Origin: Escherichia phage ETEC-TG
DNA length: 64,000 nucleotides
Sequence record: OR786310.1
Reading direction: 5' to 3' (one strand)
Shown here: piece by piece, positions 32,929 through 64,000 of the stretch
Layout: each line of letters begins with the position of its first letter
Numbering within the stretch: the first letter of the stretch is position 1
Notes under the pieces: model-generated
What the model was told of the DNA's origin: nothing
Databases searched by the model: none
The model's input: only the letters and a program-made list of their open reading frames with translations
Program-made: the position numbers and the translations under genes

Positions 32929-33117
32929 TTACTACCTCCATACGATCTAAAAAGTCATTCACAAATCTCCAGTAACGTTGACCTGTTCTAAGATCTTCAT
33001 AGATAACCACAGGATCAAACACTTTAGATATTCCGGCAGGTTTTGGAAATTCCACTACCGTATATAAACCACCTTTTGCTACACAAGAATAGGTTACGCC
33101 TGTAATTGGATAGTTGC

Positions 33118-33312
33118 TCATTTCTTTACGTACTCCATGATTGGGGTATGGTCGCCAGTAAGCGTAACACGGCTGTAGGACACATCTTGTGTCTTCAGTG
33201 TATCAATCCACTCTAAGAAGTGTTCTTTCGCTTCTGTGTAGTTCTGTGTGCCTTTAACAACGTGTATACCATCTAGAGTTACACGGAATACCATTTGAAT
33301 AACGTCTTTCAT
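33118..33312 (-). CDS. hypothetical protein
   Basis: 64 aa ORF. Confidence 0.35.
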   Translation of the reverse strand: MKDVIQMVFRVTLDGIHVVKGTQNYTEAKEHFLEWIDTLKTQDVSYSRVTLTGDHTPIMEYVKK

Positions 33313-33408
33313 TTCTTACCTCCTTTGTTATCAAAATAACTTACCAGAACATCGTGAACCACACACATGGCAAAAATCAGAACAATTGTTGTCAGGACCG
33401 GATTCTCA

Positions 33409-33732
33409 CTAATTAGTGCTATCATCTTTAACCACCTCCAATTGCCTTTCGAGTTTGACTTTGTTTGAGAACTGATAATGACACAACTTACATTGCATGT
33501 CAACAATCTGATCGTGATTTAACCCTACAATTTTAACTTCCTTTGCACCATCCCACTCCAAATACTCAAATCCATCCAAATGATTACTCTTGTCCAACAG
33601 GAATGCTATCTGCTGCCATTCAATCTGAATGTCATTTAAATGATATGCTGCACAGAAGATATCTTCATAGTAAAAGACGATCATTGTCATTGCTTCGTCC
33701 AGCACAACTACCTCTTGTCTTGTAAATCTCAT
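33409..33732 (-). CDS. hypothetical protein (first gene of the minus-strand block)
   Basis: 107 aa ORF with RBS AGGAGG, adjacent to the divergent control region. Confidence 0.4.
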   Translation of the reverse strand: MRFTRQEVVVLDEAMTMIVFYYEDIFCAAYHLNDIQIEWQQIAFLLDKSNHLDGFEYLEWDGAKEVKIVGLNHDQIVDMQCKLCHYQFSNKVKLERQLEVVKDDSTN

Positions 33733-33984
33733 TCTAGCCTCCTAAACGCGTCTCTGACGCACTTTTTATATATAAGATGATAAATCACCTTACCTAGTAA
33801 GTAAACTTGCTCTACGAGCCTCTTATGAAGCTTGTGTTATAGGCTATACTATTGCTACCTGTTTAAGCAAGGTTTTTGCACACAGAAAATAATTTTTAAT
33901 AAAACTCTTGACTTTTGTGTTCGAAGTATGCTACCCTAGAAATCTATTAACGAGCGCAGCGAGTTAAGGTTTTAAGGTTGTTGA

Positions 33985-34190
33985 TGTAGTACTCTGTACT
34001 CAAGTACTGTACTCCGTACTAGATTAATAATTATTAAATATTAATAATAAATAATTATTAGATCTAACAAACAGGTACAGTGTATCAGAACTGGTACGTA
34101 CAGATCAACTTCTATCAATTAAAAATAAAATAATAAATTATTATAAATAATACTTGATCTATAGATCGGTATGAAGTACAGTACGGAACA
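33985..34190. repeat. repeat-dense AT-rich divergent control region (candidate bidirectional promoter/origin)
   Basis: Five GTACT within about 32 bp (33989..34020), an AT-rich core with palindrome TTAATAATTATTAA (34021..34063), further GTAC copies at 34075..34101 and 34176..34184, palindrome GATCTATAGATC. Confidence 0.5.
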
Positions 34191-34214
34191 TCTTAACAAG
34201 AATGGAGGTGTGCA

Positions 34215-34400
34215 ATGATTAGTGAGAATCCGTGCAAATGGCATCATGTGCCTATTAAAGATTGTATGTCTTGTAATCCACGTTCTATTTATAACATTGC
34301 ATCTTATGATGATGACAATGTGTTAGACGATGATGAAGGCTGGGAGGATTTAGATTGGACTGGTTATGAAACCAAAAAGGATAAAATTATTCCTGGTTGA
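34215..34400 (+). CDS. hypothetical protein
   Basis: 61 aa ORF with RBS AATGGAGG. Confidence 0.4.
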   Translation: MISENPCKWHHVPIKDCMSCNPRSIYNIASYDDDNVLDDDEGWEDLDWTGYETKKDKIIPG

Positions 34401-34437
34401 CTTAAGATATCCTTCGTGCTAAACTAGAAGTGAGGAG

Positions 34438-34689
34438 ATGCCGATCACTCCCCATTTGGGGTTCGAAGGATATATGCAAAATAGCTTTTATTTTAGGTGC
34501 CGTGCTTGTAATAGGCATTTGACAAACCACTCCAGACGTGATAAAAATGGAGTCATCAAGGAATCAGACCTCTGTTCTATTTGCACAGGTTTGGCTTTTG
34601 ATGATAGTCCCGAAAGGGTTTATCAGCATCAATGTATAACAGACGTTCTCGTGTCAAACTTGGTAGAGGACGAACAACTAACAGATTAG
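34438..34689 (+). CDS. hypothetical Cys-rich protein
   Basis: 83 aa with CRAC...CSIC motifs. Confidence 0.35.
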   Translation: MPITPHLGFEGYMQNSFYFRCRACNRHLTNHSRRDKNGVIKESDLCSICTGLAFDDSPERVYQHQCITDVLVSNLVEDEQLTD

Positions 34690-34698
34690 GAGGAACAA

Positions 34699-34946
34699 TG
34701 TCTCTATTAGAAAAACACGTGTTTGAAGATGGTAACGGCAATGCAGTTTTTCTTTTCCATCCAGAAAAATACACATCTGAAAACAATGGTACAACTTCTA
34801 TTGTAATCACTAAAGATGTTAAAGTTATTGATTTCTTGGCTCTGATGCGAGAGATGGATCTTGAAATTAATACTTTTAACGCAGAAGCTTTGGTTGTTGC
34901 TCTTCTGGAAAAGAAAGATAGTGAAGAAGTAGCAGAATATGCTTAA
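34699..34946 (+). CDS. hypothetical protein
   Basis: Start at MSLLEKH preceded by TTAGGAGGAACA; the upstream ATG in the track lacks an RBS. Confidence 0.4.
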
Positions 34947-34953
34947 ATAACTA

Positions 34954-34983
34954 TTGACAAACGTATCCTTCATATGTTAGGAT
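34954..34983 (+). promoter_or_regulatory. sigma70-like promoter (TTGACA, 18 nt, TAGGAT) upstream of tRNA array
   Basis: -35 TTGACA at 34954..34959 and -10-like TAGGAT at 34978..34983. Confidence 0.4.
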
Positions 34984-35192
34984 ACGTTCATCAAGTGTGG
35001 TAACAGGGTCGTTGACTTTTGTTAAGAGGGGCTTGCACTGCGGTAGTGTTAGAGACTACTTCTTCAGAGGTTAGCTACCAAAGAGGAAAAGGAATAGTCT
35101 CGGCTCAAGAACTTTTACGCTGAAAGTTGGGCTTGGTCTTAGAGAATGTAGCGGTTCTCTACAATCGTCAGCGTCTCTGTTACCACATTTAC

Positions 35193-54153: not shown

Positions 54154-55164
54154 ATGGCAGAAAGAGAGTATACAAAAGCTCCTGCCCCTAATTTAAACAG
54201 GGCATACAAATTATTAATTGGTTCTGCCACAAACACAATACAGAAGAGAACTAAGAACTCGGCATTTAAATCTACAGTAGATTTGGATACCAAGTTAGGG
54301 ACAACAGAAAAATCCTCTTCTAATTTGTATTTGTTGCAAGACCATCAAATAACCTTCAGTATTAAGAAAGATAATAACAAAGATCCTAACCAAGCAGAGA
54401 TTGTAGTTTATAACCTTTCAGATGATACTGTTAACTATATAAACCGTGGTATCCGAAATAACTTGGCTGTTGCTTTAGCGGTAGGATACGAAGGTGAAGA
54501 GTTGGTTATGATCTTCAAAGGAACTATCCAGTGGGTTAGTGATACTTTTGACTCGGTAGACAGGAAAACCACTTTACACTGTTTGGATGGTGGTATTAAC
54601 ATTGCAGAAGCAAGAACAAGCCGCAGTTACCCAAAAGGAACTAAAATCAAACGTGTTGTGACAGATTTGGTAAAGGATTTAGGGACTACAGAAGGTAATA
54701 TACATGTAGACAATGACCAAACCCTATCTTCAGCAACAGCTATGTGTGGGAACACTTCACATTACCTAGAACATATTTGTAAGAGTATTGATCACAATGT
54801 GTCAATACAAGACGGATCTGTTTATGTTACTCCACGTTCCCAAATGTCTAGTGCACGTAGCGCCTACATTAGTCCTGAAACTGGTTTAATAGGAAGCCCA
54901 GAACCATTCCACAACGATATTAAACCTACTAAAAAAGTTACCAAATCCTCTAAGAAGGCAAAGAAACCTACAGATGGTGTTAAATTTAAATGCCAAATGA
55001 ATGGTGCAATCTTACCAGAAAAAACAATCTGGTTAAAAAGCCGAGATTATGATGGTCCATTTAAAGTAGTCTCTGTTTCCCACAATGGGGATAAAGAAGG
55101 TAAAGAGTGGGTTACTGAAGTGGAATGTGTATCCGTGTCTGAAATAATGACTAAGGAGAAATAA
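54154..55164 (+). CDS. putative baseplate hub protein
   Basis: 336 aa ORF directly upstream of the spike gene; assignment by position. Confidence 0.35.
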   Translation: MAEREYTKAPAPNLNRAYKLLIGSATNTIQKRTKNSAFKSTVDLDTKLGTTEKSSSNLYLLQDHQITFSIKKDNNKDPNQAEIVVYNLSDDTVNYINRGIRNNLAVALAVGYEGEELVMIFKGTIQWVSDTFDSVDRKTTLHCLDGGINIAEARTSRSYPKGTKIKRVVTDLVKDLGTTEGNIHVDNDQTLSSATAMCGNTSHYLEHICKSIDHNVSIQDGSVYVTPRSQMSSARSAYISPETGLIGSPEPFHNDIKPTKKVTKSSKKAKKPTDGVKFKCQMNGAILPEKTIWLKSRDYDGPFKVVSVSHNGDKEGKEWVTEVECVSVSEIMTKEK

Positions 55165-55898
55165 TGGACGCATTAAATTTTGTCACAGCAATGCGTGGCT
55201 TAATGACAGAACAATTGGCAGAAGTCCATACAGCCCTGCCAGTCCGTGTGACTGGCGTTAATTATGGTGCTAAAACTGTCACTTTAGAATCTATTGTTAA
55301 AAACACACGATCTAGTGAAGATGAAATAGATTACCCTACTTTTGAAGATGTTCCTTTTATGGTTAATGGGGGTGGGACAGGAAGAATCTCATTCCCTATT
55401 AAAGCTGGCGATTTAGGAACTGTTATATTTTCTGAAAGAGATCCTTCTAATGCACTGCAAACTAGTGGAGAAACCTCTTCATCATCCACTTTTATGCAGC
55501 CTTGTGGATTATACCCTATTTGTTTTATTCCCAAAATAGCTACAGGAACAGATTCAACAGAAGCTGTAGATTCTGAAAAGGTAGTTATTTCTAATAACAA
55601 AAACACGTACGCTTCTTTCGACCCTACAGGTAATATTTCAATATGGAATAGTCAAGGGATGAAAATAGATATTACTACCTCCGGTATTACTATTACAGAT
55701 GGCACAGGAACTTTGGATCTAAAAGGTGGTAATTTAACTTTCAAAGGCGGCGTGGCAGATATCAATGGTCTTAAAATAGATCAGAACGGTTTGATGACAG
55801 ATGGTAATGGCATCGGATTCCATACTCACACGCACACGGTTCGTAACATTCAGAGCGGTAACTCAAGTGCCGAGTCCTTAAAACCAACAGGAGCCTAA
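55164..55898 (+). CDS. baseplate central spike protein (gpV-like)
   Basis: PIKAGDLGTVIFSERDPSNAL-type OB region and C-terminal HTHTHT His-rich apex motif. Confidence 0.55.
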   Translation: MDALNFVTAMRGLMTEQLAEVHTALPVRVTGVNYGAKTVTLESIVKNTRSSEDEIDYPTFEDVPFMVNGGGTGRISFPIKAGDLGTVIFSERDPSNALQTSGETSSSSTFMQPCGLYPICFIPKIATGTDSTEAVDSEKVVISNNKNTYASFDPTGNISIWNSQGMKIDITTSGITITDGTGTLDLKGGNLTFKGGVADINGLKIDQNGLMTDGNGIGFHTHTHTVRNIQSGNSSAESLKPTGA

Positions 55899-55899
55899 C

Positions 55900-56526
55900 A
55901 TGGGAATCCCTTTTGACTTAAAACTTGGACCAAACAACGACCTCATCATGGATGATGGGGATTTGGTCCTCACTACAACCAGAACAGAAATTGCAGCACA
56001 AACTCTTGGGATAACTCTGAACACGTATCGTGGGGAGTGGTTTTTAAATACTAACTTCGGTGTTCCTTACTTACAAGAGATTATTGGTGTTGCTAGAAAG
56101 AAAGATATTGTAGACAGAATATTTTTAGCAGAGATTGCCAAAAACGTTTACATAGATACAATAAACAGTTATAAATCTGCTTATGACATGGACCAACGTT
56201 ATTATTCAATGACAGTTATGGTCACAGTTGGAGCAGATACAGTAACATCTATATTCAATACTCAACCTTCTGAAGAGTTTATTTACCCTGAAGCTGGTGA
56301 AGACAATGCAGCGATCATTTGTGAAGCTTACAGTATTGTTGAGAATTCGAATAGACTTTATCGCTTTATCAACTTTGTTGGTTTGCCACGTGATACCTAC
56401 TCTACTTGGTGGAATGAATGGTCTACAGAGTCAGCAGTGGAAAGAATCATGGTTAACGAAAAAGGTGATGCATTAGCTACAAACAATGACTTCGGTATAA
56501 CAGCTATGACAGGAGTAGAAGAGTAA
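55900..56526 (+). CDS. putative baseplate wedge protein
   Basis: 208 aa ORF following spike; N-terminal GIPFDLKLGPNNDL...DGDL pattern. Confidence 0.35.
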   Translation: MGIPFDLKLGPNNDLIMDDGDLVLTTTRTEIAAQTLGITLNTYRGEWFLNTNFGVPYLQEIIGVARKKDIVDRIFLAEIAKNVYIDTINSYKSAYDMDQRYYSMTVMVTVGADTVTSIFNTQPSEEFIYPEAGEDNAAIICEAYSIVENSNRLYRFINFVGLPRDTYSTWWNEWSTESAVERIMVNEKGDALATNNDFGITAMTGVEE

Positions 56527-56999
56527 TGGCAGATTTAACTACGATCAAAATTTCTGATCTTACACAAACAACCTCTGTGTCTGATACAGATTTCTTTGTA
56601 ACAGATCAGGCTGGAATAACAAAGAAAACTTCTTTGAAAGTGCTGTTGAGTGGTGCAGGGGTAACTAGAAACCGTCTGAATGCACGGGGAACAGTAACTA
56701 GCACCTTGGCATTAGATATTAGTTCAGCAGAATATTTTTCTGCAACTTTATCTTCTGCAACGTGCACAATTAGTTTTACTAATATTCCAGTAGCAACAAA
56801 TGCAGTTTTAAACTTTACTTTAGCTTTGCGTCAAGGAAGTGGTGCAAATAAAGTCGTATGGCCTTCTTCTGTAAAATGGAGTTTTGGTCGCCCCCCAGTT
56901 TTGAGTTATCGTCAAGGTGCAACAGACACTTTTGAGTTTATCAGTTATGATAATGGAGCAACTTGGACAGGTAGCTTAGTTTTAGCAGGAGTTATTTAA
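56526..56999 (+). CDS. hypothetical tail protein sharing N-terminal motif with the distal fibre
   Basis: MADLTTIKISDLTQTTSVSDTDFFVTDQAGITKKTSLKVLL resembles the N-terminus of ORF 62046 (TNLPETSKVNGSDYLVLDQPDKTVKSTVSNFL). Confidence 0.4.
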   Translation: MADLTTIKISDLTQTTSVSDTDFFVTDQAGITKKTSLKVLLSGAGVTRNRLNARGTVTSTLALDISSAEYFSATLSSATCTISFTNIPVATNAVLNFTLALRQGSGANKVVWPSSVKWSFGRPPVLSYRQGATDTFEFISYDNGATWTGSLVLAGVI

Positions 57000-59875
57000 T
57001 GTCAAGAGTTAAGCACAATATTGACAACACGTTTCAGTTGATTGAAGGGTTGGTTCAGTTTTTGGAAAGAAATACTGGTCTTACCATAGATCCTACGGTT
57101 CAGCACTACATTATCAACCCACAAAACGTATTGGCGAACAACAGACACTTTATTAACTGGACAGCGCAGGAAGGGCAACCAAACGGTGACGCTACTACCG
57201 AAGGTCAATCTGTGCTTATCACTGGTTTTGCTTATGCATATTTGGCTACAGGAGATAAAAAATATCTTGAATCTGCCGAGAAGTATTGGCAAGCCTATAT
57301 AGATCACTTCTTCGGGGGCCAACCTATTCCTGATCCTCCAGCTAAGTATCGTCCCAACTGGATCATCAATGGTAAAGAACCACGTTTAGCACACTACCCT
57401 CTCACAGATGATGGGTATCCTACGCACGGTGGGTTCAAAGGTAGCATGATGACTTGGATTAACGGAAGGACTGTTATTCCTAAAGGTGCGCCACATTGGG
57501 GAGAATACTTAGATAAAGCTTGGTTTGCTTTCAATGGTAATCTTGGTTGGAACTCTGTTAACGCAACAGTGTATGCAACTAACCCAGATGGTTCAACCAA
57601 CTGGAAAGAATATGGAGATCAGTGGGACGTTGAATGGATTATAGATCGTCTAGGACGTAAAGTTGATTGGGATGGTAACATTTTATCCACTGGGCATAGC
57701 TTTGCAGAATATGGAACAGTGCAACTTAAAAACGCTTCTGTGAACGGAGACTATAAATTCAACTACGCTACATGCAATCCTGTAGAACACGGTGGATATC
57801 TGCTTAAGCGTAATGAGATGTGGCATAACCGTCCTGTAAACGTTCCGGTAGAGTTAGGTTATCAAGACAATGCTTCCGATGCTGAAACGTGGTGGTGTGA
57901 TGCAAACTACTTGATGTATCAGATCACAGGAGAGAGAAAATACTGGCTTTGCTGGCAATCTTCTTTATTGTTGTGTCAAGACTACTCAAACATCGATATG
58001 TTTGATAAATTCTTCCGTAGATCTACGACAGCAATAATTCCTTTTACAGATGGTATCTCGTATGATTACTCATACCCATCTACAGCAATACCTAAATATT
58101 CTCGTGACGAGTTAGGATACACAGTAATTCGCCAAGATGTTGCAGCACAAACAACTCTAGAACAACAGGCAGTTTGGTTCAGAGTGGATCAGAATTCAAA
58201 ACTGCGTATTGAGTTTCAAGGCGTAGATGATGCAGGGGAAGGTGTTCTTTTCCGTCCAGAGTTAGAATTAAGCAAGACTAAGAGTGAAACAGACACAGTG
58301 ACATATCGTTGTGGCTTACCTCTTGGTGCAGCTAATATGACTAAGATGGATATACCTTTATCCAGTTTTATGCGCACTGAACCTCCTGGAGGTGGTGTAT
58401 ATATTATTGCTGAACCTAGAATCATTGTTGACTGGGGAAGCAATACTGTGATACAATATAAATATGCAACTGGTATTGCTGGGACAAATAGTGATCAGAT
58501 AGTTTCTGCTAATATGGATTCAGATGGTGGTTTTACTATTGGGTTTTGGTTAACACCAACTAAAACAACCAATTTAAAATCTATTACGTATCGTTCATAC
58601 GCAGATGATTTTAACATCACTATTACGGATTCCGCAGGTTGGAGATGGTGGGCCATGTTAGAAAAAACAAATTCTGCATGGGTTACTAAAGCTTTAAGTC
58701 CTGCTGATTTCAAATTAAGTACTTGGCAACCTAATCACAATGACACAGAGACAAAACCTTCGTCAATAAACCTGACTGCTGTTGATCAGATGAACATTGC
58801 ATTGGATTCTGAACCTGCAAATGGCTTGACAGGGGCAATCGACTTTTATTGCGTTAACGATATCCCATCTTTGTATTCTTCAGCCGCTGGTGATGATTAC
58901 ACAATGTATTTCAGGGTTACAGTTTCATCTGAAAATCCTTATACAGCAAAACTTGGAGATTGTACAATACTGGACTACAAACTTGACAGTTTGAATTATA
59001 CTCCAGGAATCATCCCATTTTCCAATATTAGTGATCCTAATACAGCATTATATGACGGTTGGCGTGGTATTCCTTACCCAGGTTATCAATACCCATCCTT
59101 ATATTGTTTTAAAGGGAGAGATATTGACTGGGTTCGTATGAACAACAGTATAGACTTTTTATATGATTCACAAATGTGGTTTTATAATAAGTTTGCCCCT
59201 GTAATGCCTGGGCCAATGGCACAAGCTTATGTTTGGGATCGTTGGGATGCTCATAAATATGGAAACAAAAATGAGTTCACAATGTATCATTGGAACGATA
59301 AAGCTTGGGATGGTTATGAAGCAAGAGCATTCTTCTGTGCGTGTCATACGGTATACGAACTAAAGCGACGAGGAGCCGAAGTTCCTGAAAAACTTTTAAC
59401 AGTTTGTAAAAACTGGATCAACTACCTGAAGTGGTTCCAAGATAACAACGAAGGAAGAACACCAACAATATTTTATCCCAACGGAGAAGTGGCTGCGCCT
59501 GTAGATGACTTTACAAGTCACATGTCTGCGCTCTTTATGGCGGGATGTGCTATAATGGGGATGGCTGGATATGATTCAGAAATTCCTAACATTAGAATAG
59601 TAGCAGATCGCTGTTTTGAACTTATTCAGGAAAACTATATTGTTCTTGGTCCTAATCACGTCATGAATGGTTGTTGGAGTGCTGCTCCTAGACCAGACAG
59701 TGATAACGGAGTCTTCTTTGGCTTCCACGCTGGAGAGTTGTTACGTGGTTTTGGGTTGTATGCTTTATACAAAAAACTTAATCCCCAAAATGCATTACCT
59801 GTTTTGGATTCGAGCAATATTCCTGCACTTACTGTTTTGACAATGGCAAACATTAGTGTGGACGTTACCGAGTAA
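56999..59875 (+). CDS. large baseplate/tail fibre-associated protein
   Basis: 958 aa, Trp/Tyr-rich ORF in baseplate module. Confidence 0.4.
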   Translation: MSRVKHNIDNTFQLIEGLVQFLERNTGLTIDPTVQHYIINPQNVLANNRHFINWTAQEGQPNGDATTEGQSVLITGFAYAYLATGDKKYLESAEKYWQAYIDHFFGGQPIPDPPAKYRPNWIINGKEPRLAHYPLTDDGYPTHGGFKGSMMTWINGRTVIPKGAPHWGEYLDKAWFAFNGNLGWNSVNATVYATNPDGSTNWKEYGDQWDVEWIIDRLGRKVDWDGNILSTGHSFAEYGTVQLKNASVNGDYKFNYATCNPVEHGGYLLKRNEMWHNRPVNVPVELGYQDNASDAETWWCDANYLMYQITGERKYWLCWQSSLLLCQDYSNIDMFDKFFRRSTTAIIPFTDGISYDYSYPSTAIPKYSRDELGYTVIRQDVAAQTTLEQQAVWFRVDQNSKLRIEFQGVDDAGEGVLFRPELELSKTKSETDTVTYRCGLPLGAANMTKMDIPLSSFMRTEPPGGGVYIIAEPRIIVDWGSNTVIQYKYATGIAGTNSDQIVSANMDSDGGFTIGFWLTPTKTTNLKSITYRSYADDFNITITDSAGWRWWAMLEKTNSAWVTKALSPADFKLSTWQPNHNDTETKPSSINLTAVDQMNIALDSEPANGLTGAIDFYCVNDIPSLYSSAAGDDYTMYFRVTVSSENPYTAKLGDCTILDYKLDSLNYTPGIIPFSNISDPNTALYDGWRGIPYPGYQYPSLYCFKGRDIDWVRMNNSIDFLYDSQMWFYNKFAPVMPGPMAQAYVWDRWDAHKYGNKNEFTMYHWNDKAWDGYEARAFFCACHTVYELKRRGAEVPEKLLTVCKNWINYLKWFQDNNEGRTPTIFYPNGEVAAPVDDFTSHMSALFMAGCAIMGMAGYDSEIPNIRIVADRCFELIQENYIVLGPNHVMNGCWSAAPRPDSDNGVFFGFHAGELLRGFGLYALYKKLNPQNALPVLDSSNIPALTVLTMANISVDVTE

Positions 59876-59883
59876 GGGGTAAA

Positions 59884-62037
59884 ATGAAACAAGCTATATT
59901 TACTGTCACGCGAGACAAGAGAGTAAATGCGAGTTCATTTAACTACACGACTGTTGACGGAACAGCAGTCGCTGGTAGAGATTATATTGCAAAATCGGGA
60001 ACACTTGTGTTCCCTGATGATGCTGATTCTGCTACTATTGTGGTTGAAGTATTTGAACGACCAAAGAACTCAATAGATCTTAACTTCTCCCTCCAAGTTT
60101 CAGGGATTAGTCAAAATAACATGATGGTTGAAACAACCATCAATTGTATTATAACTACTATCCAAGAAAATACTACTCCAATAACTTGGACTACAAAAGA
60201 CGTTAAAATGTTCTCTCCTATGTATTGGACAATAGATTCTCAAGCAACGGAAAGTTGTTCTATTGTATCTCATGGAGACTCTTTTACTGCAAGATTTGTA
60301 AACAGAACAACAGCAGGTTTGGCAGGGGTTATCTGGAGCACAGTTGACAAATATGACCATAAAGGTGTTGGGTATTTGCCTCACACAGATTTAAGTTCAG
60401 AGAAACTTTGGTTTAAAATGGAAATTAGTCAAAACATGCCAGGTTTTAAAGAAGAACCTTTGGTGCCGACTTTGACTGTAACTCTCCTGGATAAAAGTGT
60501 TCATTATGTCAGTTTAGGATTCTACGCTTCAGATATTTCAGAAGATGGTAAAACAGCCACAATAAAGTTAGATTTTGGTAATATCTTTTCTGGCCCTAAT
60601 AATGATATTCCTTTGGATATGAGTGCTGTAGATAATATTTTCTTCTCTTTGATTACAGCAAGGTATGAAAAAATAGAAGAGGTTGTACCTATTGACAGTC
60701 AAGAGGCTTGGTTTACTTTCACTCTTCTTGAACCTACTTCTGGTTACAGTATGATGAAAGTCAGCAACCTTGTCCAGCCTGAACATGATATTCGCATGTG
60801 CACATCTTATGATGATATGTATAACCTGACTCCAGAGAGAGTTATTTATAATACATATGCACTAGGTTATCGTGGAATGATTAACCATTACAACGGAATG
60901 TCTCACTATTATGAGTTCTCATGGAACGGAACATCTTGGGCTTTAAATAGATCTGTTTTCCTGAATCCGGCTACAGAAGCTTGGCTAAATAGTTTCCATT
61001 CTATAGCAAACGAGAAGGGCTACACGATAATGAACTCTTTAAGTTTTGAATTGATGAGCACAGTTTGTCCTGTAGAATGGGTCCAGCATGATTGGAACGA
61101 TGCTCTTGCAGCAACAGGGTATGAACCTCCTAGTTATGTGTTGTCTCCAACTATTGACGAAGGTATGGAATATTTGCAAAATGTTATTAACAAAATAGCA
61201 TCTATTTCGCAAGCTAATAATATTCCAGTTGTCATTCAAATTGGTGAGCCTTGGTGGTGGTATAATACAGCAAGTAAAATGCCTTGCATATATGATTACA
61301 CTACCAAACTGGCATTCAACACAGAAACAGGCTTATTTGCACAAGATGCAGGAACAATAGATAATTATAAAACAGGAACACCGTTTGACGAATACTATGC
61401 ATTTTTGTCTCGTAAACTAGGGTTAAGAGTTACAAAGTTTGCAACAGACACTAGAGCAACTTATCCAGGAGCTAAAGTAACATTGCTGCCATTCTTACCA
61501 TCAATTATCGGCAATGGTTTAATGGAGAAAGTTAACTTTCCGTCTGATTACTACATTCCTGAAGCTTTTGATTTTTATTGTTCAGAGTGTTACGACTGGC
61601 TTCTGGAAGGTAAAATGATGAAAGCATTTGATGCAATTACCATACCACATGAAAAATTAGGTTTTGAATATTCTGATATTCACTATCTTGCAGGTTTTGT
61701 TCCAGATGCTACTCTTGCACCTTTGTATGGCTTTGATCCTGAATCAAACTACCGCACGTATCTTTGGAAAATGATTATAGGTAACATAGTGTTGAACGCC
61801 AATAAGTTCAATGGACTTACACAATATATATGGGCCTATCCTCAAATAATGCACGATTCTATCACGGTAGTTAATTCTCAATCCCAAGTTTTCTATATGG
61901 GTAACGTGCCTTTGAACGCTTATTTACAGGATATCACTCTTAAACAGGTAAATGTTGAGATTGCCACCATAAGTGGAATTACATTAGCCACTAAATCTGG
62001 AGAAGATTTAGTAACAACACAAAAATTTTATATATAG
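59884..62037 (+). CDS. tail-associated protein with N-terminal Calx-beta-like motif
   Basis: 717 aa; N-terminal SFNYTTVDGTAVAGRDYIAKSGTLVFPDDADSATIVVEV resembles a Calx-beta repeat. Confidence 0.4.
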   Translation: MKQAIFTVTRDKRVNASSFNYTTVDGTAVAGRDYIAKSGTLVFPDDADSATIVVEVFERPKNSIDLNFSLQVSGISQNNMMVETTINCIITTIQENTTPITWTTKDVKMFSPMYWTIDSQATESCSIVSHGDSFTARFVNRTTAGLAGVIWSTVDKYDHKGVGYLPHTDLSSEKLWFKMEISQNMPGFKEEPLVPTLTVTLLDKSVHYVSLGFYASDISEDGKTATIKLDFGNIFSGPNNDIPLDMSAVDNIFFSLITARYEKIEEVVPIDSQEAWFTFTLLEPTSGYSMMKVSNLVQPEHDIRMCTSYDDMYNLTPERVIYNTYALGYRGMINHYNGMSHYYEFSWNGTSWALNRSVFLNPATEAWLNSFHSIANEKGYTIMNSLSFELMSTVCPVEWVQHDWNDALAATGYEPPSYVLSPTIDEGMEYLQNVINKIASISQANNIPVVIQIGEPWWWYNTASKMPCIYDYTTKLAFNTETGLFAQDAGTIDNYKTGTPFDEYYAFLSRKLGLRVTKFATDTRATYPGAKVTLLPFLPSIIGNGLMEKVNFPSDYYIPEAFDFYCSECYDWLLEGKMMKAFDAITIPHEKLGFEYSDIHYLAGFVPDATLAPLYGFDPESNYRTYLWKMIIGNIVLNANKFNGLTQYIWAYPQIMHDSITVVNSQSQVFYMGNVPLNAYLQDITLKQVNVEIATISGITLATKSGEDLVTTQKFYI

Positions 62038-62045
62038 GAGTAAAA

Positions 62046-64000
62046 ATGTCAACTACAATTACTAATTTACCCGAAACATCAAAAGTTAATGGTTCTGATT
62101 ACCTGGTTTTAGACCAACCTGATAAGACTGTTAAAAGCACAGTTTCCAACTTTCTTACTGACACTGGGGTGGTTTTAGCCACCCAGTTGAAAGATACAGA
62201 TGGAGCTACCAAGTATCCAGAACTTCAGATTGCACGCTGGCGAGACGAGGGAGATATCAGAGGGTGGGGCACGGAAACAAACGGTGATGTTACCGAAGCA
62301 ATCATTGAGGCGGTAGCGGCGACAAGCGGCACTATCATTGTGCCACCTGGTGACTATGTTGCCACACCTACGCTGGCCGAAGTTCCGGCTGTGCTGAAAT
62401 TGCTGTCCCGCGCTGATTTTCGTGGCAGGTTGACCATTAATCTGCCAGCTGGGACGGTCAATCTGAACGAGCAGACAGTCATAAATTCTAACAGGAGTAA
62501 TCTGTGCAAGGTCATTGGCGTAGCGCTAAACACGAGCGTTACAGGGCTTGTTTCTGTAGCTGGGTCAAGCAAGCAATATTCGATAACTCTGTCCCTGGCA
62601 GATGCCTCGCAGGTGTCAGTCGGTGACTATGCCATCTTCAGGCACGATCTGACGGGAACTGGTTTTTTCCACATACACTGCGGGGGCTGGCGGGTAACGG
62701 CTGTGTCCGGCAATAACGTGACCGTGCTCAACACATGCGTCTTGGATTCATTCCCTTCGTCAACCGTTACCGGTGGATCAGTCTCCATTATCAAGTCCGT
62801 TCTGAAATACACCGGCTGTGATGGGATTAGACCGGAGGGCGGCGACTGTATCGGAATTATTGATAATGTCGCCATCGTGGGTGATTACAACCTTGCTACC
62901 GGCGCAGGGACAATCGGTGCTCACGGCGTAATATCCTCAACACCCGTAGTAGTCACCGACGCCGCCAACGCATCCAACAACGTAGCGAATATGGCGGCAG
63001 CGCTGGCCCTGGGACGAAATATTGCAATCAGTGCCTGGGGTGAGCAAGGGCTGGCAGTGTCGGGTCGCTCTGCGCTTGTGTGTAACTTCATCGCATCCTG
63101 TGCCAACCGTAAGCGTGGTATTTATGCGGAAGGTGCTCATATACGCGGGAAATTTATGATCGCCTCCGGAAACGGAGAGGACGGCATTATTTCAGATACC
63201 ACTGGATTTGTGCAGGCTGCATATGCCGTTTGCTCGGGTAACGGATTAAACGGGTTCTGGTCAACAAACCTCTCTCTTATTGCGGCGGCAAGGGGAGTGG
63301 CTTGCTGTAACAAAACAAATGGTGTGGAGGCAAGGGGGCAGACAAGGCTCGCATTTGATCTCGGCCTTTCCTACGGAAACGTTCTAAACGGTGTCAGCGC
63401 CTCTGATGGGGGCATGATTGACTTTGATGGCGGCATGTCAAGAGACAATCTCGTTGACGGGATCGCAGCGACATACAATGCAGTAGTTGACGCGAACAAC
63501 GCCTCCAGTACCACCAATGGTCGTTACGGTACTAACGTGACCTCCGCGTGCATTATCATTTCAGGGACTGGTACTATATCTGGGAATACAGGGGCGGATG
63601 TTCGTGATAACGGCAATGGGATGGTTGTCCGACCAGACGGCACGATCTACCCATTCACTGGGGTCGCACAGGGTAATCTGTCGCTAAGAAACACCGTCAG
63701 CGGCGCGGGGGTTGACATTGTTCCTACAAGTATAGGTGACTTAATTCTGAGCTTTAAAAACTCAGCAGGCGGAACGCTTAACCCGTTATACAACTTCAAA
63801 GCCGACGGTACTCAGTACCCTCAAAATGACGCGACGCAAAGCCTTGGGCGTGCCGCTAACCGATACAATGTCGGTTTCTTCGCTGGCGGAACACAGTCAA
63901 CTTCAGATGCCACACTTAAAGACCCTATCCGGGAGTTCAATCAGGCCGAACTTAATGCAGCAATGCGAATCGCAAAAATGCTGGGTTTCTGGACATGGCT
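62046..64000 (+). CDS. tail fibre/tailspike protein, 3' end beyond window; GC-rich distal module
   Basis: RBS TAGGAG, N-terminal adapter-like motif, then from about 62290 visibly GC-rich and Gly/Ala/Thr/Asn-rich sequence; open to the window end. Confidence 0.55.
   Translation, partial: MSTTITNLPETSKVNGSDYLVLDQPDKTVKSTVSNFLTDTGVVLATQLKDTDGATKYPELQIARWRDEGDIRGWGTETNGDVTEAIIEAVAATSGTIIVPPGDYVATPTLAEVPAVLKLLSRADFRGRLTINLPAGTVNLNEQTVINSNRSNLCKVIGVALNTSVTGLVSVAGSSKQYSITLSLADASQVSVGDYAIFRHDLTGTGFFHIHCGGWRVTAVSGNNVTVLNTCVLDSFPSSTVTGGSVSIIKSVLKYTGCDGIRPEGGDCIGIIDNVAIVGDYNLATGAGTIGAHGVISSTPVVVTDAANASNNVANMAAALALGRNIAISAWGEQGLAVSGRSALVCNFIASCANRKRGIYAEGAHIRGKFMIASGNGEDGIISDTTGFVQAAYAVCSGNGLNGFWSTNLSLIAAARGVACCNKTNGVEARGQTRLAFDLGLSYGNVLNGVSASDGGMIDFDGGMSRDNLVDGIAATYNAVVDANNASSTTNGRYGTNVTSACIIISGTGTISGNTGADVRDNGNGMVVRPDGTIYPFTGVAQGNLSLRNTVSGAGVDIVPTSIGDLILSFKNSAGGTLNPLYNFKADGTQYPQNDATQSLGRAANRYNVGFFAGGTQSTSDATLKDPIREFNQAELNAAMRIAKMLGFWTW

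Follow-up and report, generated by a model that had tools for sequence, protein, structure and literature searches.

The open reading frame (ORF) that starts at position 62046 of the 64,000-nt stretch of DNA analysed here (the window) is, with high confidence, the gene of an exchangeable tailspike in a phAPEC8-like phage of E. coli, coding for a modular receptor-binding protein whose helical part would have been acquired from the tailspike pool of temperate phages. Judged by its sequence, the window is a phAPEC8-like Phapecoctavirus, and the ORF occupies the place of the variable tailspike, which is gp143 in phi92 and gp095 in phAPEC8. The gene opens with an ATG and runs for 651 codons up to the end of the window, with its 3' end beyond; the ORF upstream ends at 62037. 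An earlier note on this DNA had labelled the product a distal tail fibre, a name that we replace, the protein being a tailspike and not a fibre, while phi92 gp143 itself is thought to be the distal subunit of fiber I, which is L-shaped (PMC13450770). The protein is a mosaic of five parts: an anchor of 54 residues, a neck of about 25, a beta-helix, a short stem and the start of an S74 chaperone (Table 1).

Table 1. Features of the tailspike gene and of the ORF that shares its N-terminal motif.
Feature	Position	Strand	Basis or remark
157-aa putative small fibre (phi92 gp140 / phAPEC8 gp098 / 'TfpS3')	56526..56999	+	Homology searches and positional mapping
Shine-Dalgarno sequence AGGAG	62036..62040	+	Read from sequence; overlaps the stop of the preceding gene and lies 5 nt ahead of the ATG
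Lineage-specific N-terminal anchor, aa 1-54	62046..62207	+	GC 0.383, genome-typical; match to most relatives ends at 62206
Neck/linker, aa 55-80, TKYPELQIARWRDEGDIRGWGTETNG	62208..62285	+	GC already raised; conserved across phage genera
Right-handed parallel beta-helix, aa 81-545	62286..63680	+	GC 0.52; AF2, Foldseek, Asn ladder
C-terminal stem / beta-sandwich before the chaperone, aa 546-619	63681..63902	+	AF2 strands 545-592
Start of Peptidase_S74 intramolecular chaperone, S620-D-A-T-L-K625 onward	63903..64000	+	Register with PF13884 homologues

The anchor is 93-100% identical across 21 clusters and in dozens of tailspikes whose distal domains are unrelated, and at least six Pfam types of distal architecture follow it, including PF18668, PF13229, PF12708, PF13472, PF27114 and the endosialidase. 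A part conserved within the lineage is thus joined to a variable one, as in other modular tailspikes. In the working model that we favour, the anchor would fix the trimer on the fibre scaffold of the baseplate and the conserved short neck would link it to the remainder, while the beta-helix would bind, and probably cleave or modify, a polysaccharide of the host surface (O-antigen or capsule). The GC-rich part would have entered by homologous recombination at the conserved neck and helix-cap sequence (62206-62345), coming from the tailspike gene pool of enterobacterial temperate phages, and recently enough for the module to retain host-like GC and codon usage.

Composition and codon usage

Background GC in 1750-bp windows is 0.385 ± 0.017, with a maximum of 0.441, while the stretch from 62271 to 64000 reaches 0.524 (z about 8). 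The abrupt GC-rich module inside a single gene that the earlier note had described is therefore real, and its run ggcggtagcggcgacaagcggc was found near 62310, but the start proposed for it, at about 62290, was too late: the maximum-likelihood change point falls at about 62158 and GC is at or above 0.45 from about 62130 onward, so that the break begins about 100 nt earlier. GC at third codon positions (GC3) is 0.53 in the module against 0.22-0.33 in six upstream tail genes, and GC at positions 1 and 2 is 0.52 against 0.41-0.47 in neighbouring genes. Relative synonymous codon usage (RSCU) shows no correlation between the module and its phage neighbours (r=0.06) but does correlate with that of genes from prophages and the chromosome (r=0.40-0.46). 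The module has the codon preferences of the host and not those of the phage.

Homologues in related phages with the same composition throughout would have spoken against acquisition. They were not found: the allele that phAPEC8 carries here is of native GC (0.38); the ECO340P1 allele of the same locus is near native as well, and those of VEcB, alia and 536P1 stand at 0.47. Across the other alleles of the locus GC spans 0.38 to 0.48, which makes the present one the least adapted.

Structure of the distal part

A beta-helix had been guessed from the repeats, correctly. AF2 modelled residues 80-530 with pLDDT mostly above 90, the anchor and neck being of low confidence, and the best Foldseek matches of the model are phage tailspikes and alginate epimerases (E 1e-7 to 1e-4), at merely 8-13% sequence identity. 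Asparagines 376, 399, 422, 445, 468, 491 and 514 are invariant and form a ladder with a spacing of 23 residues; self-similarity peaks at the same lag (0.54, compared with -0.76 ± 0.24 at other lags). Fold prediction, structural neighbours and ladder agree on a right-handed parallel beta-helix. Invariant acidic and basic residues (E333, R357, K369, E378, D379, D384, E428, R430) lie along one stretch of it. The model is of a monomer; the native protein would be a trimer. Pfam assigned no family, catalytic or other, to the 651-codon fragment; the helix would be a receptor-binding, probably enzymatic module.

Homologues of the stem are phrog_1171 and the region of the L-shaped fibre of T5 that precedes its chaperone (4uw8, query residues 552-651). 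The S74 domain follows, with 32 residues inside the window and, from the C-terminus of the prophage tailspike P0001, about 97 more expected beyond; PF13884 gave no Pfam match in the fragment, and all full-length homologues have the domain. The SDATLK sequence is in register with the PF13884 start of P0001 (715), VEcB gp217 (619), P0003 (619) and P0018 (701), aligns to SDARLK...GFWTW of T5 pb1 and supplies the Ser-Lys dyad motif S-D-x3-K at the domain start. By analogy with such proteins (the record of phi92 gp143 gives a form matured by proteolysis), we propose that the chaperone would fold the trimer and then cut itself off at Ser620. The pre-chaperone stem and chaperone start align with both T5 pb1 and the C-terminal chaperone of the K1F endosialidase, but the body of pb1 is a fibre and that of the present protein a beta-helix.

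Relatives of the module

From 62286 onward, the module is 88% identical in nucleotides and 94% in amino acids to P0001, a tailspike of a lambdoid prophage whose gene lies downstream of lambda-like tail genes. The podovirus-like prophage tailspike P0002 is 80% identical to the module in amino acids, the P22-type 'phage tailspike protein' P0018/P0028 59%, and identity to prophage and phage tailspikes with different anchors other than P0001 ranges as a whole from 59 to 80%. Beta-helix, stem and S74 domain are homologous and of similar GC in P0001, P0002 and P0018/P0028, but their anchors are entirely different from the present one (PF18668, unknown and PF09008, respectively) and fit their own virion types. 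The module is therefore carried by prophages of at least three types, and the same receptor-binding domain stands behind different anchors in unrelated phages: PF18668 in the lambdoid prophage and Sashavirus, PF09008 in P22-like phages, and the unknown anchor of the podovirus-like prophage.

The module has no identical counterpart in the databases, its best match reaching 88% in nucleotides. Among complete E. coli genomes, megablast matched only the last ~200 nt, in the S74 region, and a sensitive search found prophage tailspikes at no more than 64-69% identity, so that neither a donor nor a serogroup emerged from these searches. These relatives, the restriction of Phapecoctavirus matches to the first 54-77 codons, the host-like GC and codon usage and the native GC of the phAPEC8 allele together support the horizontal acquisition of a receptor-binding module that the earlier note had put forward.

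Within the subfamily, the endosialidase tailspikes phi92 gp143 and phAPEC8 gp095 share the position, the first 54 residues and a related neck, and they end, as the present protein is expected to, in an S74 chaperone released by cleavage (PMC13450770); they carry a sialidase beta-propeller of native GC (0.38), however, and here an unrelated beta-helix of GC 0.52 takes its place. An endosialidase identity was rejected: the fragment has no match to PF12217, PF12218, PF12219 or PF12195, and its similarity to phAPEC8 gp095 does not reach beyond about aa 75. The same architecture is seen in the tailspikes of Justusliebigvirus VEcB (gp217), alia and Phapecoctavirus 536P1, which have a similar length (749 aa), an identical anchor and a homologous helix and S74 domain, and belong to a receptor-binding protein subtype that Pas et al. 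2023 treat (PMC10408124). Their helix is just 67% identical in amino acids and about 68% in nucleotides, so that the present allele is far closer to the prophage copy than to theirs. PF18668, the N-domain of TSP1/gp66-type tailspikes, gave no Pfam match here, unlike in P0001 and in many of the sister alleles of Phapecoctavirus. With the tailspikes of Kuttervirus CBA120 (TSP1-4), G7C (gp66/gp63.1) and HK620/P22/Det7 the protein shares a principle, a conserved anchor with an exchangeable beta-helix transferred across genera (PMC10408124, PMC11414711); the fold is similar too, but sequence similarity in the helix is undetectable (8-13%).

The neck as a probable recombination joint

Only the first 54-77 codons of the gene match other Phapecoctavirus genomes, and the DNA similarity of relatives stops between 62206 and 62277; that of the phAPEC8 endosialidase runs out at 62269-62277 (about aa 75). 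Homology breakpoints were located at 62206, 62255-62277, 62286 and about 62346. The neck and helix cap between them (62206-62345) are 97% identical to the VEcB, 536P1 and alia alleles, neck DNA is present in phi92 gp143, CUS-3 and T7-like podophages at 75-84% identity, and the neck peptide matches residues 212-261 of PDB 9vvr. The alignments place the probable recombination joint in the neck, with a precision of tens of bases. The modularity of anchor and receptor-binding domain, horizontal transfer and recombination motifs have been described (PMC10408124); the mechanism is thus already published (Pas et al. 2023 and the phi92 work), and the present case is a new allele of it.

Discussion

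GC richness could in principle stem from the amino-acid composition of, or selection on, a Gly/Ala-rich beta-helix and not from foreign origin, and the rise at codon positions 1 and 2 is what such a protein would show. The largest shift, however, lies at synonymous third positions, codon usage is uncorrelated with that of the phage genes, a prophage gene matches the DNA at 88% identity and the phAPEC8 and ECO340P1 alleles of the locus are near native in GC; on GC3 and codon usage we ruled composition out as the cause, and consider this explanation highly improbable. Equally little credit is due to an assembly chimera of a phage contig with prophage or bacterial reads. The window does end inside the gene, leaving the phage sequence 3' of the module outside it, but the reading frame is continuous through the junction, the locus shows this anchor-neck-helix-S74 architecture in three complete genomes as well (VEcB, alia, 536P1), the segment nearly identical to phage alleles overlaps the start of prophage similarity, and the module lacks an identical database sequence. 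Transfer in the opposite direction, from Stephanstirmvirinae phages in which the module was born to prophages, is also very unlikely. Homologous alleles do exist in VEcB, alia and 536P1, and lytic phages exchange such modules among themselves (PMC10408124), yet the GC and codons of the module match the prophage and host context (0.50-0.55) and not the phage (0.385), the phage alleles seem partly adapted to phage composition (0.47), and the module is spread over several prophage types. A recent transfer from temperate phages to the present lineage is what we infer.

The function of the helix deserves more caution. That it is a non-catalytic binder, or that its target is capsule or another shared glycan and not a specific O-antigen, is a reading to which we give perhaps one part of our belief in four, and one that the Pfam search, void of catalytic families, would suit. 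VEcB-subtype relatives occur in prophages of several serogroups, O6, O11 and O153 among them, and given this inconsistency, found by Pas et al., the receptor might not be the O-antigen; the same authors raised the possibility of a K-antigen (PMC10408124); resistance to 536_P1, moreover, maps to LPS core and capsule genes, not clearly to O-antigen (PMC11495123). Against a mere binder speak the structural neighbours, the foremost being enzymatic tailspikes or depolymerases and epimerases or lyases, and the invariant charged residues along the helix; against a shared glycan, the spread over serogroups follows divergence (89.8% for O6, 66% for O11, 62% for O153), as befits allele-specific O-antigens. 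We keep to a surface polysaccharide as the putative target, which the helix would bind and probably cleave or modify. An association with O6 (strain 536 is O6:K15, there are prophages of O6:H16 ETEC, and the O6 relative stands at 89.8%) is that of the VEcB subtype and not necessarily of the present allele.

Exchange of receptor modules is a well-documented route of phage host-range change. The present allele, absent from the phage genome collection searched, is a very clean case of a recent, still unadapted cassette swap, useful as an example for host-range prediction and the design of chimeric tailspikes while leaving current understanding unchanged. Phages of the phAPEC8 and phi92 types are candidates for therapy by virtue of their several receptor-binding proteins, and multivalent host recognition has been described (PMC8594841, PMC11984140). 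The tailspike locus is the one that varies most between isolates, and so the range of encapsulated or smooth E. coli strains open to an isolate is largely set by the allele that it carries there.

A motif shared with a second protein

The one mildly new point concerns the anchor, whose likeness to the N-terminus of the ORF at 56526-56999 had been noticed before and proved to be genuine homology. Residues 4-45 of the anchor correspond to residues 8-49 of the 157-aa protein (nt 56547-56672), whose mapping by position to phi92 gp140 and phAPEC8 gp098 also draws on PMC13450770 and PMC12695924. Smith-Waterman gave a collinear alignment of 39 residues with a score of 62, reached by none of 2000 N-terminal shuffles and by 2 of 500 full-length shuffles, and hhalign a probability of 95.8% (P 6.9e-9, score 40.9) where the top score among 150 column-shuffled controls was 15. 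An HMM of the anchor retrieved this ORF as its sole other match (E 2e-6) in a set comprising every six-frame ORF from the window and seven loci, and the reciprocal search from the 157-aa N-terminus returned the tailspike anchor (E 6e-3). BLASTP of the tailspike against the 157-aa protein gave no N-terminal match, a failure of seeding and not of similarity, as the alignment and profile methods show.

Interchangeable modules on a common adapter had been suspected from this likeness. The anchor does bear exchangeable distal modules, but the motif is limited to two proteins per genome and the other fibres do not have it. The stretch of about 40 residues may, tentatively and on alignment evidence, be a docking peptide common to the tailspike and the gp140-like protein. 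If so, two different appendages would plug into equivalent sites on a scaffold of the gp141/gp142 type, for which the window has a gp141-like ORF at 56999-59875 and a gp142-like one at 59884-62037, part of the composition of fiber I and fiber II left unresolved in phi92 would be accounted for, and a minimal plug-and-play tag for host-range engineering in the subfamily would be defined. The cryo-EM study of phi92 (2026; PMC13450770) could not resolve where gp143-type proteins attach, and the motif offers a testable hint on how the appendages attach.

AF2 gave the 157-aa protein a pLDDT of 45 from a shallow alignment of 14 sequences, and a profile search of the PDB with it found nothing. An exhaustive phmmer search of 1.8 billion representatives, with the anchor of 54 aa as query, missed the 157-aa family, the query being too short for a library that large. 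Two matches of that run were dismissed as spurious, P0157 as a repeat protein and P0158 as an assembly artefact; P0159 is a true distant relative of the anchor.

Compositional break in the tailspike gene

The tailspike ORF of Escherichia phage ETEC-TG is a mosaic. The earlier note had claimed an abrupt GC-rich module within this ORF, and the break is real and strong: the GC content of 62271-64000 is 0.524, about 8 standard deviations above the rest of the window (1750-bp windows elsewhere in it: mean 0.385, sd 0.017, maximum 0.441). The rise starts earlier than the proposed ~62290, near 62130-62220. Synonymous sites shift most, with a GC3 of 0.53 in the module versus 0.22-0.33 in six upstream genes, and in relative synonymous codon usage the module shows no correlation with its phage neighbours (r=0.06) but does with prophage and chromosomal genes (r=0.40-0.46). 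Relatives do not share this composition, since the phAPEC8 allele at the locus is native (GC 0.38, GC3 0.23) and the GC values of eight further alleles lie between 0.38 and 0.48, making that of ETEC-TG the extreme. Elsewhere in the window, the GC skew flips sign near 34000 (from about -0.16 to +0.15, within ~33000-35000), which fits a change from minus-strand to plus-strand gene blocks.

Gene neighbourhood

The ORF starts at 62046, five nucleotides after an AGGAG, and its 651 codons are open up to the window end. The surrounding genes are a baseplate/fibre cluster, and the ORF occupies the position of phAPEC8 gp095, VEcB gp217 and phi92 gp143. The phi92 protein is an endosialidase that is inferred to form the distal part of the phage's L-shaped fiber I (PMC13450770). 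By megablast, 60000-64000 is 95-98% identical to some 100 phAPEC8-like phages, which are E. coli myoviruses of ~150 kb in the genus Phapecoctavirus (Stephanstirmvirinae); the match ends at 62206 in nearly all of them and at 62255, 62269 or 62277 in a few. The 717-aa protein encoded directly upstream has, besides its Calx-beta domain, the N-terminal and TIM-barrel domains (PF23844 and PF23845) that define the 'non-contractile tail sheath protein' family; it may be the scaffold or arm bearing the tailspike. In other Phapecoctavirus genomes, a 102-aa ORF beginning MNEMFSQGGKGSTGILTNKQAVARHFGVKQSEVVYF is found just 3' of the tailspike gene; one record labels it 'tailspike [Salmonella phage Marshall]'. 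This ORF resembles an orphaned N-terminal piece of a Kuttervirus-type tailspike and is possibly the remnant of an earlier cassette exchange.

Features of the tailspike locus and counterparts of its 3' flank in other genomes
Feature	Position	Remark
Hub	54154-55164	
Central spike	55164-55898	
Sheath-initiator-like protein	55900-56526	
157-aa 'tail fiber protein'	56526-56999	
958-aa tail protein	56999-59875	
717-aa protein	59884-62037	Calx-beta and 'non-contractile tail sheath' domains
Anchor, aa 1-54	62046-62205	~100% identity to all relatives
Neck/helix-cap stretch	62206-62345	97% identity to VEcB, alia and 536P1 alleles
Prophage-like part	62286-window end	88% DNA identity to P0001 tailspike gene (94% aa)
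102-aa ORF, phage nieznany	L010:7452-7760	counterpart region beyond window 64000
102-aa ORF, ZCKP1	L009:8440-8748	counterpart region beyond window 64000
102-aa ORF, Ro121c4YLVW	L011:8085-8393	counterpart region beyond window 64000

Mosaic joints and origin of the module

The mosaic layers were resolved by thirty-nucleotide identity tracks and BLAST. Similarity to the phAPEC8 endosialidase fades within the neck/helix-cap stretch and is gone by 62269-62277, and past 62346 identity to VEcB and 536P1 drops to 50-70%. The P0001 gene comes after lambda-like tail genes and adjoins chromosomal genes, and its host element is therefore a lambdoid prophage. These layers of identity place the crossover within conserved sequence that encodes ...AIIEAVAATSGTIIVPPGDY.

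The neck DNA (62196-62290, encoding YPELQIARWRDEGDIRGWG) occurs in the same position, at 75-84% identity, in the phi92 and phAPEC8 endosialidases, in P22-like CUS-3 and in several 40-kb T7-like podophages, and the neck peptide is also present in the solved tailspike 9vvr. Pas et al. (2023) suggested that lytic genera, including Justusliebigvirus, recombine preferentially at conserved 'end of anchor' motifs (PMC10408124). The recurrence of the neck DNA is consistent with this, and the neck is probably their cross-genus motif.

The anchor is 93-100% identical across 21 representative clusters and dozens of proteins, and the distal parts behind it are unrelated (PF18668, PF13229, PF12708, PF13472, PF27114 and endosialidase domains). 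The helix module is found behind a PF18668 domain in P0001 and Sashavirus 536P12. A P22-type head-binding PF09008 precedes it in the 'phage tailspike protein' of an E. coli prophage (59%), and a podovirus-like prophage carries it as well (P0002, 80%). Peptidase_S74 terminates each of these carriers. No copy above ~69% nucleotide identity was found among the phage genomes of the collection searched, nor above 69% among complete E. coli genomes. Horizontal acquisition, as the earlier note had suggested, is thus supported by the host-like codon usage, the DNA identity to a prophage gene and the presence of the module behind other anchors. The tailspike is an unusually clean, recent case of an otherwise ordinary cassette exchange, already known in the phAPEC8-like group, to which ETEC-TG adds a new allele.

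Predicted fold and receptor

AlphaFold2, run on the tailspike fragment with a 57-sequence alignment, gave a mean pLDDT of 84, and above 90 over most of aa 80-530, where short, evenly spaced strands form a predicted right-handed parallel beta-helix; a beta-rich stem (545-592) and a helix (633-646) follow. Repeats suggestive of a beta-helix had been read correctly from the sequence: Asn is invariant at 376, 399, 422, 445, 468, 491 and 514, and self-similarity peaks sharply at lag 23. Foldseek against the PDB retrieved tailspikes and depolymerases (LKA1 gp49, AP22 gp54, CBA120 TSP2/3, Det7, HK620), alginate epimerases and GH110 enzymes, only 8-13% identical, so there is no close solved relative. 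No catalytic family was recognised in the fragment; the invariant or almost invariant charged residues E333, R357, K369, E378, D379, D384, E428 and R430 are candidates for a putative substrate groove. Residues 552-651 align to the T5 L-shaped fibre (4uw8), immediately before and into the intramolecular chaperone, and S620-DATL-K625 falls exactly at the PF13884 start of P0001, VEcB gp217 and P22-type homologues. In S74 chaperones (K1F endosialidase, T5 pb1) this Ser-Lys pair self-cleaves once the trimer has folded. About 97 residues of the S74 domain lie beyond the window end.

The 67%-identical alleles come from phages isolated on the O6:K15 strain 536, or from kin of such phages, and 536_P1 requires LPS (PMC11495123). 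According to Pas et al., prophages of O6 (89.8%), O11 (66%) and O153 (62%) strains carry relatives of the VEcB tailspike (PMC10408124). Since the ETEC-TG allele is about as distant from VEcB as the O11 and O153 copies are, we conjecture that its specificity probably differs from that of VEcB.

An N-terminal motif common to two proteins

The resemblance between the tailspike N-terminus and ORF 56526-56999, also pointed out earlier, reflects real homology. BLASTP missed it because seed words are lacking. Smith-Waterman aligned tailspike aa 4-42 with aa 8-46 of the 157-aa protein (score 62, reached by 0/2000 N-terminal and 2/500 full-length shuffles), and profile-profile comparison gave a probability of 95.8% (P 7e-9) over 41 collinear columns, scoring 40.9 against 15 for the best of 150 column-shuffled controls. 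Across the window and seven loci, this ORF was the sole other match of an anchor HMM (E 2e-6; E 3e-8 for the VEcB counterpart); the reciprocal search gave E 4-6e-3. The motif is absent from the other phAPEC8 fibres gp091, gp088, gp087 and gp086. In P0159, a distant relative of the anchor (45% identity) is followed by SGNH-esterase-like sequence. The agreement of these tests points to a genuine homologous module; in both genera, each genome encodes exactly two proteins that carry it, and it is a reasonable inference that both would dock at the same kind of site. The phi92 study neither located gp140, the 'putative tail fiber' to which the 157-aa protein corresponds, nor resolved how gp143 attaches (PMC13450770). 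No published mention of the shared motif was found in the literature covered, which did not include the phi92 genome paper, and this putative docking motif is the only point slightly beyond that literature.

The 157-aa protein is modular too: aa 1-50 are the anchor-like motif, and matches to several further 'tail fiber' families of PHROG are confined to its C-terminal aa 55-157. Its structure prediction reached a pLDDT of only 45, and no sequence relative was found in the PDB. P0158, a 215-aa database protein, is made up of an anchor-like peptide repeated in tandem (MSLTNLPVASTVYGTN.LYLNEPDKP...); the entry is most likely not a genuine protein but an artefact of assembly or gene calling.
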